DNA of 23,702 bases from Gemmatimonadales bacterium (GTDB taxonomy: Bacteria > Gemmatimonadota > Gemmatimonadetes > Gemmatimonadales > GWC2-71-9), in NCBI GenBank assembly GCA_041615815.1, contig JBFJCP010000045.1:1-23702 (forward strand), given 5' to 3'. This document shows positions 18,001-21,000 of this stretch, piece after piece. The position numbers are program-made. The stretch's first letter is position 1, and the number at the start of each line of letters is the position of its first letter.

Positions 18001-21000
18001 CGGCGTTGCAGGGGTGAAGGCGGCGATGGATCTCGTTGGCCTTGCCGGTGGCCCGGTTCGCCTCCCTCTCACCGACTTGGGCGCCCGCCACCGTAAGCGC
18101 GTCGCGGGCCTGCTGCGCCAGGCAGAGTTGCTCGCGGCCTGAGGGGTGACCGCACCTCGCTGGGCTGGACCCCTGTTCCACCGCCTGGCTCGTCCACGGC
18201 TTCCGGGGACCCCAGAGCTGGCTCGAGCCCAGGCAGCCATCGTCGAGCAGCTGCAGGAGCTGGGGTACCAACCGCGACAGGTTCCGTTCACGACGTCCGG
18301 TCGACGACTCGCGGCCGTCACCATTGCCGGTGCCGGGCTCGGGTGGGTGGCGCTGCTCACCGTGCCGTTGCTCGTGCTCGACCTTGCGGGGTGGCCCGTG
18401 ACGGTGTCCGGCCTGGCCGGCCTCGCCCTGATTGCCGTATTGGCGCTCGGAATCGCCGAGGGCCGCCTCCCCACGCCGGCTTCCCCCATCCGGGGTGTGA
18501 ACATCGTGGCGGGCGGTTCGGCCACCCGTGTCTGGCTCGTCGCCCACTCCGACAGCAAGTCCCAAGGAGCATCGCTCGCCGGTCGGGTCATGGGTAGCGT
18601 CGTGGCAATGCTGGGGGCCGTGTTGCTGAGTGGCGTCCTGCTCGCTCGCATCGCTGGGCCCCTGCCTGTCTGGATGGCGCTCGCCGCGTGTGCACCGGCT
18701 TTGGTTGGCGGTGCCGTCTTGTCGTTCAGCCGCGCACGCAATGAGTCTCCGGGTGCGGTGGACAATGCAACCGGGGTCATCGCGGCGCTCACAGCCGCTG
18801 CGCAGCTCAGCGGTCGCTCGGACATCGGTGTGATCATCACCGATGCGGAAGAGCTCGGACTCGAAGGGGCCCGAGCGTGGGTGGCCACCATGCCGCGATC
18901 GGAAGCGGCATTCGTGAATTTCGATGGGCTCGATGATCGGGGGTCCTATCGCGTGATGCCGCACGCTGGTCACGCGGCATCGAGCCTCGCCCGAGTGATT
19001 GCCGCCGAGCTCGGCGGGCAAGGCGGGGTCGTAGTGCAGCGTCTACCCCCCGGGGTCCTGGTCGACGGAATCGTGCTCGCGCGGTATGGGTTGACCGGCG
19101 TGAGTGTGAGCCGCGGCGATTTCGCCACGCTGCGCGTCGTGCATACCGCGCGCGACGGCCCCGAGCGCGTGAGTGTCGCCTCCGCCGTCGCGGCAGGTCG
19201 GGCCACGGCCCAGGCGCTGGGGCGCTGGCTGAGTTGACGCGTCGACAATCGGTCCCTACCTTGCCGAGAGGATGCCCCGGGCGGGAACCCCGGGGCCTTT
19301 TTCTTGTCCGATCCGAGGCGTGGGATGTTCGATTCTGAATGTCGGTGCGTGGTGGTCGTAGGCGCGCAGTGGGGCGATGAGGGGAAGGGAAAGATCGTCG
19401 ATGTGTTGTCCGAAGAGGCCCACCTGGTCATTCGGTATCAGGGCGGGGCGAACGCCGGCCATACCGTCATCACCGGTGAGGATGAGTTCATTCTGCATCA
19501 AATACCCTCCGGTATCCTTCGTCCGGAATTGCGATGTCTGATAGGCAACGGCGTGGTGCTCGATCCCGAGACCCTGCTTGCGGAGATCCATCAGCTGGAG
19601 GATCGCGGCATCGCGGTGACCGGGCGACTGGTCATTTCGGATCGAGCCCATCTGGTGCTTCCCTATCACAAACTCTTGGATCGTGCCGCGGAGCAGCGGC
19701 AACGCATCGGGACGACCGGGCGCGGCATTGGTCCGGCGTACGAGGACAAGTTCGGGCGGCGTGGTCTGCGAATGGGCGAGCTGCACGACCTCACGCGAGC
19801 CGGCCAACGGGTTGGCAAGGCTGTCCAACGGGCCAATCGCCTGCTGGATCTGATGGAGGCTGACGCGCGAGCCGATCCGGAGGAGCACATGGCCCTGCTC
19901 GAGCGCCTGGCGCCGACGTTGCTACCGTTGGTGGGCGATACCGGGAGAATTGCGTACGAGGCATATCGGGAGCGGAGACATTTGCTGCTCGAAGGGGCCC
20001 AGGGAGCGCTGCTGGATGTCGATCACGGGACATACCCTTTTGTCACATCCTCCAACACAACCGCCGGTGCGGCGGCGGTCGGGGCGGGGATTGGCCCCAC
20101 AACCATCGACGCCGTGCTGGGCGTGGTCAAAGCGTATACCACCCGGGTCGGGAATGGCCCCCTGCCAACGGAGGCGGACGAGCCCACAGCGGAAAAGTTG
20201 CGCCAGTGGGGGGGCGAGTTTGGGGCCACCACGGGGCGTCCGCGGCGCTGTGGATGGTTCGACGCCGTCGTGGTGCGTTACGCCGCACGTGTGAACGGTC
20301 TCACTGATTTGGCGGTTACCAAGCTCGATGTGTTGGACCAGCTTTCGACGATCCCCGTGTGTGTTCGGTATGCCCTGCCGGGTGAGGAATTGGATGAGAT
20401 TCCCGGTGATACGAATCTGCTTGAGCAGGTGCGGCCGGTCTACGAGCAAATGCAGGGTTGGTGTCGGCCAACGACGAGCGCGCGCCGCCTCGCGGATCTC
20501 CCGCCAGAAGCTCGTGCGTACTTAGACCGGTTGGAAGCCCTGATCGGCACGCCCATTCGACATGTCAGCGTTGGGTCCCGACGCGATCAGATGATCGATC
20601 TCTGATTGACTGCAGGTCCGTGGCGAATCATGCATGCGGATGTTATTGTGATCTGTGTCACATTCTTGTGTGTGTGCGCCCACCTGCACAAAAAAATCCC
20701 CCTAGGGCCGAAACCCTAGGGGGGACGCCTGCCACACACTACGCGCCCTAGAATCTAGTGCGGGCGAGGCGCAACAAAAGAACCCGGCGCTCCAATAGGG
20801 GCGTCGGGTTCGAGGCATTCCAGGAACTTTCCTTCTCCTGGCAGCCGGGCTATCCTCATCGAGGATCCCTAGCTTTGCGCCCCGTCGTTACCGACGGTTT
20901 GCCCTTTTCAGGAAGCGAGTGCAAAACTAACGGCGGTCTCAGCCGCTGTCAACTATGTACGACACGTTTTCACGGGTCGTTTTCTACAAAAAGCCCGCCA

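Follow-up and report, generated by a model that had tools for sequence, protein, structure and literature searches.

Layout of the locus

The window, a stretch of 23,702 nucleotides from a Gemmatimonadales bacterium (contig JBFJCP010000045.1), carries an ORF-less unit on its minus strand, between a Wzc/EpsB-like gene and a convergent purA. Read along that strand, the unit consists of TTGACA-17-TAGTTT, a GEMM-I aptamer, a hairpin termed T1 and a two-hairpin RNA of ~90 nt with its own terminator. Both flanking genes had been named in a first-pass annotation of this DNA and were recovered. The features are as follows.

20984..23362, minus strand: Wzz and AAA_31/CbiA protein (Wzc/EpsB-like; polysaccharide co-polymerase/tyrosine-kinase-like), upstream of the unit
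20947..20952, minus strand: −35-like hexamer TTGACA, from direct reading of the sequence
20924..20929, minus strand: −10-like hexamer TAGTTT, 17 nt past the −35, likewise read directly
20836..20912, minus strand: c-di-GMP-I (GEMM-I) aptamer whose binding-site letters are canonical, including the diagnostic A at 20876, matched by RF01051 and RF03167
20820..20841, minus strand: predicted anti-P1 hairpin H2, in which the P1 3′ strand CCAGGAG pairs with UUCCUGG, which repeats the P1 5′ strand further downstream
20773..20810, minus strand: terminator-like hairpin T1 (20810-20781) with U-rich tail CUUUUGUU (20780-20773), predicted in all window folds
20690..20771, minus strand: sRNA module, made up of SL1 (20771-20726), T2 (20723-20698) and a U-run (20696-20690), from folding, model R1 and covariation
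20743..20753, minus strand: SL1 loop UUCUAGGGCGC, its last ten letters invariant in the alignment
19304..20605, plus strand: adenylosuccinate synthetase purA, convergent (PF00709, 571.8 bits)

The promoter-like layout reported earlier (TTGACA, 17-nt spacer, TAGTTT) is present in the sequence, though a consensus scan flagged 0 promoter-like sites in the window; the scan missed it because TAGTTT agrees with TATAAT at only three of six positions. A transcript from this site would start near 20917. By motif search, 5 of 30 loci had TTGAC[AT]-N16-18-TA..TT in the 260 nt preceding the module, and the same sigma70-like motif was seen by eye in the relatives G165, G167 and G240. Both terminators that had been claimed were found again: T2 (20723-20698 plus the U-run) was flagged by the consensus scan, and T1 was unflagged yet is predicted in every window fold. 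Between 20984 and 20690 the minus strand holds no ORF of at least 60 aa, in keeping with the earlier statement that the unit holds no plausible ORF. A lone 38-aa frame, running from an ATG at 20818 through T1 and the module, was rejected, the ATG being absent in both same-genus relatives, G057 and G120.

Class and ligand of the aptamer

The aptamer is real, and the RF03167 match (67.2 bits against a gathering threshold of 59) spans 20836-20912 on the minus strand, one base off the earlier 20837-20913, which is the span of the RF01051 match. RF01051 scores 67.5 bits (gathering 35) over the full model, positions 1-87. The first-pass annotation had the aptamer scoring best as the c-di-GMP-I-GGC variant; this holds by E-value only, and by bits the two models tie. 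A true GGC variant, recognizing some ligand different from c-di-GMP, would account for cmscan reporting RF03167 above gathering and with a better E-value than RF01051, and the aptamers of four relatives likewise exceed 59 for RF03167; those of three of seven fall below it. The two consensus sequences differ at a single upper-case core column, reading CGC-G-AA in RF03167 and CGC-A-AA in RF01051. The window has A here, scored as a mismatch in the RF03167 match line, and the same canonical A occupies the column in 23 of 23 module-linked aptamers with printed alignments. We therefore regard the variant reading as hardly credible.

The remaining letters and the architecture agree with the parent class. 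The window carries AAGGGCAAACC, CGC-A-AAGC (A at 20876) and GCUGCC, which are the RF01051 upper-case consensus letters; all helices of the P1/P1a/P1b architecture are paired in the clan-model alignment, with GUAA, a GNRA tetraloop, as the P1a loop, and a stand-alone fold of the window aptamer reproduces P1, P1a and P1b. We take the GGC in the RF03167 name to denote the three binding-site letters, G replacing the intercalating A, and the ligand-contacting G, A and C of c-di-GMP-I to be G20, A47 and C92 in Vc2 numbering. Judged by its letters, the aptamer is an ordinary c-di-GMP-I riboswitch rather than a GGC variant, and it presumably binds c-di-GMP. The genome contains 14 GGDEF matches, and c-di-GMP is therefore made in this organism. 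The gene context that had been proposed for the GGC variant falls away, because the window aptamer and the linked aptamers carry the canonical A. Since the Rfam GGC-variant model can outrank its parent on canonical aptamers, the diagnostic letter should be checked before variants are called.

The small-RNA module and its linkage to the aptamer

The module folds with an MFE of −46 kcal/mol (z −4.85), and the covariance model R1 scores 101.4 bits at the window copy, the only one in the genome. In alignment A2, 95% of cells are paired and 13 of 21 pairs show two-sided changes, a count tilted toward that structure by the fitting of A2 to the covariance model; 13 such pairs were reached by 0 of 500 shuffles, and slid controls gave 2-6. 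No variation was seen in the loop UUCUAGGGCGC across 17 sequences, nor in its 10-nt part, UCUAGGGCGC, across 44, the preceding U being kept in 43 of these. No Rfam family matched the window module, the best score (15.5 bits, anti-hemB, gathering 49.5) being at chance level, as was the best for the G178 module (26.4 bits, ctRNA_pGA1, gathering 45). By these comparisons the module represents a previously undescribed candidate sRNA family.

R1 was run on 151 genomes of the family and on 79 genomes of 11 other families. It found 38 module places in 37 of the family genomes and none in the other 79. At 29 of these places the module is preceded on its own strand by a GEMM-I aptamer, 60-170 nt upstream, eight lack one, and one is at a contig end; with three genomes flagged unpublished set aside, the aptamer-linked fraction is 26 of 35. 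Together with 15 further loci, 39 of 53 have the aptamer, 13 do not and one is cut, the carrier genomes being kin and locus counts thus not independent events. The reported identity of 81-89% between the window module and those of G057, G008, G052 and G055 was reproduced, as was the presence of an aptamer in G057 and G055 and the lack of one at gathering in G008 and G052. The earlier reading of the locus as an aptamer-sRNA tandem has thus gained from a conserved ORF-less unit, a tandem in 39 of 53 loci (3 of 5 before) and an independent module, and has lost its GGC and other-ligand part.

Three settings of the unit were encountered: between a Wzc-like gene and convergent purA; between a divergent glycerate kinase and convergent purA; and, in genus g48, inverted in situ, with purA and glycerate kinase on either side. 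G084 holds two copies. Stand-alone modules have promoter-like sequences of two types. In G052, TTGACA-17-TAGGTT lies 41 nt upstream of the module, and G240 has a similar motif; in G043, G138, G085 and G010 a sigma54-type GGCAY-N5-TTGC is found 30-38 nt upstream, and sigma54 genes were present in five of five genomes tested. As the module stands alone in 13 of 53 loci, in several with its own promoter-like motif, it is best read as an sRNA gene in its own right, and one that does not need the aptamer.

These stand-alone copies also bear on a worry raised in the first-pass annotation, namely that aptamer and module are independent neighbors. The aptamer with T1 would then form a self-contained orphan riboswitch RNA, such as a sponge for c-di-GMP, and the module would be an sRNA transcribed from its own start. 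The 13 aptamer-free modules agree with this. So does the merRNA of Bdellovibrio bacteriovorus, a 445-nt RNA confined to Bdellovibrio and proposed as a c-di-GMP store, which like the present unit has a c-di-GMP riboswitch in a non-coding RNA and no conserved ORF downstream, and for which the report describes no separable conserved sRNA module (PMC3627812). In Clostridioides difficile, moreover, a second promoter lies between riboswitch and RCd11 (PMC7699646). In the window, by contrast, only the U-run of T1 stands between T1 and the module, and the 180 nt leading up to the module contain neither a sigma70-like nor a sigma54-like motif; the tandem loci have neither room nor motif for a promoter between the two. 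The tandem has also persisted where promoter type and neighbors changed, and through an in-place inversion and a duplication. The worry is weakened without being removed, and we consider independent neighbors unlikely.

The module could instead be part of one long cis-acting leader, either as the second half of a two-terminator platform or as a 3′-end or antisense element for purA, with no function in trans. The nearest model is Bc1 of the Bacillus cereus group (Bacillus thuringiensis), where a GEMM-I aptamer is likewise followed by two intrinsic (rho-independent) terminators at a distance of 28 bp from each other (PMC11218506). Protein genes lie behind Bc1, and both terminators form part of its platform (PMC11218506); here the second terminator is that of an independent sRNA gene. 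Although purA adjoins the module in most loci, it does so convergently, which leaves nothing downstream to regulate, and in g48 unit and purA are codirectional, so that an antisense role is not kept. No T-run follows the T2 hairpin on the purA strand. The occurrence of the module with its own promoter motif and no aptamer, and a 10-nt loop without variation on covarying stems, unlike a plain terminator, further argue against a cis leader, which we judge very unlikely.

Expression platform and proposed control of the sRNA

Folding points to a platform made of H2 and T1. The window's unconstrained MFE contains H2, and an equivalent is found in the free MFE of G057, G118 and G055 and is absent from that of G120. 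The T1 interior, 20802-20788 (GCCCCUAUUGGAGCG), is complementary to the aptamer 5′ part (CGCUUC...GGGC). Every one of the 11 loci folded is predicted to form a T1-like hairpin once the aptamer is enforced, and in the free MFE the pairing between aptamer 5′ part and T1 interior displaces T1 in four of them (G149, G078, G003 and G088). The best linker partner of the 5′ 19 nt of the aptamer falls inside T1 in 12 of 14 relatives. This pairing has energies of −16.7 to −24.5 kcal/mol, compared with about −14 for shuffles, and for 11 of these 14 relatives no more than 2.3% of shuffles match it. In the window leader, before the T1 3′ strand exists, the free MFE already pairs GGGC with the GCCC of T1. 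In the window's own clade (G000, G057, G120, G118 and G055; five of five) T1 is kept in the MFE with or without the aptamer enforced, a result that sits well with independent neighbors.

In loci without T1, the free fold keeps SL1 intact in six of eight, and enforcing the aptamer leads to pairing between the linker and UCGGGUUCUAGGGCGC, which would give regulation of the same sign; a linker complementary to the module loop would be senseless between unrelated neighbors. The predicted folds suggest that c-di-GMP favors T1 or, where T1 is missing, refolds the sRNA and buries its loop, i.e. OFF logic. For the window itself, the switch and its OFF direction are inferred from the complementarity and from homology with the other clade. 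An ON switch, built on the freed H2 3′ strand and GGAGC of T1, was considered and dropped, its complementarity not being kept in G057.

Beside the observed anatomy, canonical aptamer letters, family-wide linkage and independence and structure of the module, the reading that we favor, with a probability of about 0.7, is that this c-di-GMP riboswitch gates production of this trans-acting sRNA within one ORF-less transcription unit, likely as an OFF switch, so that a second messenger probably decides whether the sRNA is made. The promoter would drive a canonical c-di-GMP-I riboswitch whose expression platform, H2 and the intrinsic terminator T1, decides on read-through of RNA polymerase into the ~90-nt sRNA (SL1 with loop UCUAGGGCGC, plus T2). 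Without c-di-GMP, the aptamer 5′ part (P1 5′ strand and GGGC) would pair with the T1 interior while H2 holds the P1 3′ strand; T1 would be blocked and the sRNA made. With c-di-GMP, the aptamer would close, T1 would form and transcription would end about 140 nt in. The finished sRNA would act in trans, through its invariant loop, on some RNA or protein partner.

More tentatively, and with some doubt on our part, the aptamer may control the same trans-acting RNA in two ways: by termination at T1 in loci of the window type, and by refolding of the finished transcript on c-di-GMP binding in T1-less relatives, where GCGCC..CCCGA in a 35-48-nt linker would pair with UCGGGUUCUAGGGCGC, so that SL1 would be lost and the invariant loop hidden. 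If so, this would be a second-messenger-operated allosteric sRNA, in which the riboswitch would set how active a trans-acting RNA is and not whether a gene is expressed, and through the sRNA c-di-GMP, in most genera together with sigma54, would be connected to a regulon.

Riboswitches that govern a regulatory RNA rather than an mRNA are few, and the arrangement has precedents. EutX of Enterococcus faecalis and Rli55 of Listeria monocytogenes are ORF-less sRNAs controlled by AdoCbl riboswitches, in which, as would be the case here, the 5′ riboswitch permits the full-length sRNA only without ligand and 3′ hairpins form the active platform (PMC8237595, PMC13501541). The anatomy of the present unit fits one ORF-less transcript of this type, with no promoter motif between aptamer/T1 and module, and stand-alone loci, covariation and the invariant loop are comparative evidence for a functional 3′ RNA body. 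Whereas EutX and Rli55 respond to B12 and carry a dual ANTAR-type hairpin, the unit described here has c-di-GMP as its presumed ligand, an unrelated module sequence and one conserved loop.

The c-di-GMP precedents found in a literature search were merRNA and the C. difficile prophage antitoxin RNAs. In the latter, the c-di-GMP-I riboswitches Cdi1_4 and Cdi1_5 lie upstream of RCd11 and RCd12, likewise with a premature terminator before a non-coding RNA that shares the downstream terminator, and act as OFF switches whose read-through falls at high c-di-GMP; RCd11 and RCd12 are cis-antisense antitoxins on prophages, with a stronger second promoter behind the riboswitch (PMC7699646). In contrast, no gene lies opposite the module here, no second promoter motif was seen, and the unit, found family-wide, lies on the chromosome. 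A search of the literature on Gemmatimonad riboswitches returned no report of such a unit. The arrangement is a conserved feature across a large part of one bacterial family, in dozens of Gemmatimonadota genomes, and with two platform designs and two promoter types around the same aptamer and sRNA it offers natural controls, some carriers having the aptamer and others lacking it. Should the arrangement be confirmed, it would constitute an RNA-level output branch of c-di-GMP signaling in a poorly studied soil phylum and define a new family of sRNAs whose 10-nt recognition loop is sharply delimited.

In one metatranscriptome run, a 228-nt contig aligns to precisely the interval 20691-20771, with three differences, and is unlike the window beyond both ends; it is a relative's copy, and may stem from DNA carry-over. 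The run contained 6% of the words, its only matches being this module and the P1a region of other riboswitches, and stretches lacking cover are uninformative. Hfq was not found in the 95.7% complete genome. Within the genome, the complement of the loop 11-mer occurs exactly only at the module itself, with 45 sites at one mismatch against 152 for the control; no 9-10-mer complement lies near first-start ORFs, and duplex energies of the loop with 6126 candidate start regions equal those of five shuffled loops. Across the 151 genomes, carriers have about 1.9 extra sites complementary to the 10-mer and non-carriers 1.1, a small difference confounded by kinship. Twenty such extra sites from five relatives are mutually dissimilar; as a lead, seven of them fall no more than 35 nt ahead of a plausible start codon.

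Layout of the unit and class of its aptamer

The unit, read from the minus strand, comprises a GEMM-I (c-di-GMP-I) aptamer, a terminator-like hairpin (T1) and a 3' module consisting of a stem-loop (SL1), a terminator (T2) and a U-run. Its features are as follows.

Stop at 20984, minus: Wzc/EpsB-like gene (Wzz plus AAA_31/CbiA), upstream neighbour of the unit
20952-20947, minus: -35-like TTGACA
20929-20924, minus: -10-like TAGTTT, 17 nt after TTGACA; putative promoter
20912-20836, minus: GEMM-I aptamer, Rfam covariance match
20841-20820, minus: hairpin H2, P1 3' strand CCAGGAG paired with UUCCUGG (predicted)
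20810-20781, minus: hairpin T1, GC-rich, with tail CUUUUGUU (predicted fold)
20771-20726, minus: SL1, 46-nt stem-loop directly 3' of the T1 tail (predicted fold)
20723-20698, minus: T2, perfect terminator with seven U (consensus scan and fold)
End at 20605: purA, convergent to the unit

T2 was picked up by a consensus scanner, which missed both the promoter and T1; the putative assignments of these two rest on comparison and folding. No promoter motif was found between T1 and the module in the window, and an ORF scan of the unit's strand returned no frame of at least 60 aa. A 38-aa frame spanning T1 and the module was rejected, its ATG being lost in both same-genus relatives.

The first-pass annotation had placed the aptamer in the GGC variant class. 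RF03167 (c-di-GMP-I-GGC), the match named by cmscan, scored 67.2 bits (gathering 59) and the parent model RF01051 67.5 bits (gathering 35), so the two models are level. In the conserved core their printed consensuses differ at one upper-case column, GACGC-G-AAgCc in RF03167 versus GACGC-A-AAgCc in RF01051; the window reads GGCGC-A-AAGCU, which the match line marks as a mismatch to RF03167. The variant is named after its three ligand-contacting letters, so GGC would denote a change of the intercalating A to G. With the parent model level in bits and the canonical A at the diagnostic column, the variant assignment was dropped, and the aptamer is classed from its sequence as canonical. Since this A is present in the window and in 23/23 printed module-linked aptamers, and the window's genome has 14 GGDEF matches, c-di-GMP is the expected ligand.

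GEMM-I aptamers are abundant in the family (335 matches in 127/151 genomes), and in several relatives' genomes c-di-GMP-I aptamers occur as tandem pairs or triplets, ~160-180 nt apart (e.g. G047:C36:1983-2385, G047:C3:4761-5163, G100:C176:43639-43909 and G109:C83). The window's genome (G000) has a second one at C21:66721-66803 (+) (locus L002, 1501-1583), also with the canonical A, scoring 58.3 bits with RF01051 and 58.7 bits with RF03167, slightly below the RF03167 gathering threshold. The ORF that begins 150 nt downstream of it is at least 450 aa long and has no Pfam family above cut-off, with a weak DUF4900 match.

Conservation of the 3' module and its linkage to the aptamer

The 3' module is an RNA conserved in both sequence and structure. 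A BLAST search of 301 family genomes with the region recovered the four module relatives reported previously and added further matches, and 17 aligned copies shared an invariant UUCUAGGGCGC in the SL1 loop. For the window copy, the folding energy is -46 kcal/mol (z -4.85). Among 44 copies (42 distinct), in an alignment fitted to the model and so biased towards the structure counted, 95% of cells were paired and 13/21 pairs had changed on both sides; none of 500 shuffles reached this number, slid controls gave 2-6, and UCUAGGGCGC was invariant in 44/44. R1, a covariance model of the module, found a single copy in the window's genome and 38 places in 37/151 family genomes (19/78 genera). On a phylum sample it matched 18/71 genomes of the window's family and 0/79 of the genomes searched from 11 other families, and no Rfam family resembled the module. 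The closest purA relatives in named records came from Gemmatimonadales and Gemmatimonadaceae MAGs, in line with the phylum named in the first-pass annotation; the module was present at 3/15 of these loci, and at one of the three a c-di-GMP-I aptamer precedes it by 28 nt. A 228-nt metatranscriptome contig (run X1) has its match to the window confined to the module's span, 20691-20771, where 3 differences occur, and neither of its flanks resembles the window; it represents a relative's module copy in an RNA library.

The 38 R1 places were cross-matched with RF01051 places, BLAST aptamer places and sequences. An aptamer lay 60-170 nt upstream on the same strand at 29; eight had none (G052, G008, G137, G083, G043, G138, G085 and G010), and one, in G109, was cut by a contig end. 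Without three unpublished genomes (G134, G068 and G014) the counts are 26, 8 and 1 of 35, and with 15 more loci they are 39, 13 and 1 of 53; the carrier genomes are kin, and these are not counts of independent events. We put the probability that aptamer and module form one unit at roughly 0.7. The pair outlasts promoter-type change, neighbour change, in-place inversion and duplication. It follows a Wzc-like gene or lies beside a divergent glycerate kinase, with purA or penicillin amidase downstream. In genus g48 (L046 and L047), judged relative to other sigma54-type loci, promoter, aptamer and module are inverted in place between purA and glycerate kinase, and G084 has two module copies (C40:5173-5261 and C129:1442-1529), each with an upstream aptamer.

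Promoters and predicted switching

TTGACA-N16-18-TA..TT was present in 5/30 loci and GGCAY-N5-TTGC in 21/30, the chance expectations in the window's genome being 0.0008 and 0.0024 per 260 nt, respectively; sigma54 genes were found in 5/5 genomes tested. These motifs indicate that orthologous copies of the sRNA gene have exchanged one sigma factor for another, with TTGACA-17-TAnnTT in the window's clade (G000, G057, G120, G118 and G055) versus sigma54-type GGCAY-N5-TTGC in the 21 loci. Near-consensus sigma54-type motifs are seen 30-200 nt upstream of the module, e.g. at L046, L053, L056, L057, L064 and L065. In the window, the sigma70-like promoter is 181 nt upstream of the module, with the aptamer-T1 cassette between. 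At six aptamer-less loci a promoter motif directly precedes the module, sigma70-like in G052 (41 nt before it) and G240, and sigma54-like in G043, G138 and G085 (30-38 nt) and in G010. In genus g9 (L010, L011, L012, L016, L018, L023 and L024) the aptamer is replaced by a different conserved leader ~135 nt upstream of the module, containing AACGCCCGGCTCACGCC, AGATTC, a covarying hairpin with loop CCCGCTTGG, and GGGCAGACCG; neither a sigma70 nor a sigma54 motif was seen at these loci. The G211 leader (g9) retains a recognisable vestige of the aptamer's 5' half (P1a half, 24.8 bits), which suggests aptamer loss in g9, where the leader could be a decayed sensor or one of another kind.

Folding predicted two platform designs. 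Enforcing the aptamer gave a T1-like hairpin before a U-rich tail in 11/11 folded loci. In the free MFE, T1 was kept in seven (G097, G058 and the whole of the window's five-member clade), and in four of the sigma54 clade (G149, G078, G003 and G088) it gave way to a pairing between the T1 interior and the aptamer's 5' part (P1 5' strand plus AGGGC). In a separate test, the best site for the aptamer's 5' 19 nt within the linker between aptamer and module was compared with shuffles: it fell inside T1 in 12/14 relatives, including G057 (-16.7 kcal/mol, equalled by 10.7% of shuffles) and G120 (-20.4 kcal/mol, 1.3%), and just 3' of T1 in G118 and G055. The window shares this complementarity (CGCUUC...GGGC versus GCCC...GGAGCG, read from the sequence), and the free MFE of a window transcript ending before the T1 3' strand already has the GGGC-GCCC pairing. 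Nine tandem loci have a linker of only 35-48 nt without a terminator. Of eight folded, six (G113, G121, G059, G009, G084 and G100) kept SL1 intact when free and paired the linker with UCGGGUUCUAGGGCGC when the aptamer was enforced; G047 and G032 had this pairing in both states. By either design, c-di-GMP binding is predicted to leave no active sRNA; as the designs share this sign, we read the window's unit, with a slight preference for this direction, as an OFF switch.

Precedents and possible sRNA action

Published work describes EutX/Rli55 as sRNAs under AdoCbl riboswitch control (PMC8237595), the c-di-GMP-I-linked prophage antitoxin RNAs RCd11/12 as prematurely terminated at high c-di-GMP, with another promoter located downstream of the riboswitch (PMC7699646), merRNA as an ORF-less RNA containing a c-di-GMP riboswitch (PMC3627812), and Bc1 as having a dual terminator (PMC11218506). 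No such unit in Gemmatimonadota was found in the literature searched (partial coverage). Control of sRNAs by riboswitches as such is already known; thus, what is new here is the sRNA family, its family-wide c-di-GMP-I linkage and the two predicted platform designs.

Sites complementary to the sRNA loop were not enriched in the window's genome, a crude duplex scan with the loop gave the same result there as shuffled controls, and no Hfq match was found. Across 151 genomes, the loop's 10-mer complement occurred ~2 times per genome versus ~20 for the reversed control, probably reflecting general CTAG avoidance, and was slightly commoner in module carriers. Twenty extra sites in five relatives were not orthologous. 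Seven of them, all four in G078 (L084-L087) and all three in G058 (L100-L102), lay 0-35 nt upstream of plausible start codons, as did 0/9 in G133 and G043 and 0/3 in the window's genome. The seven ORFs behind them are unrelated, and three start with signal-peptide-like sequences; as a possible clue to targets, these sites are a lead, no more. The combination of covarying stem and invariant loop would fit either binding to a protein, as with EutX/Rli55, or a kissing or seed interaction.
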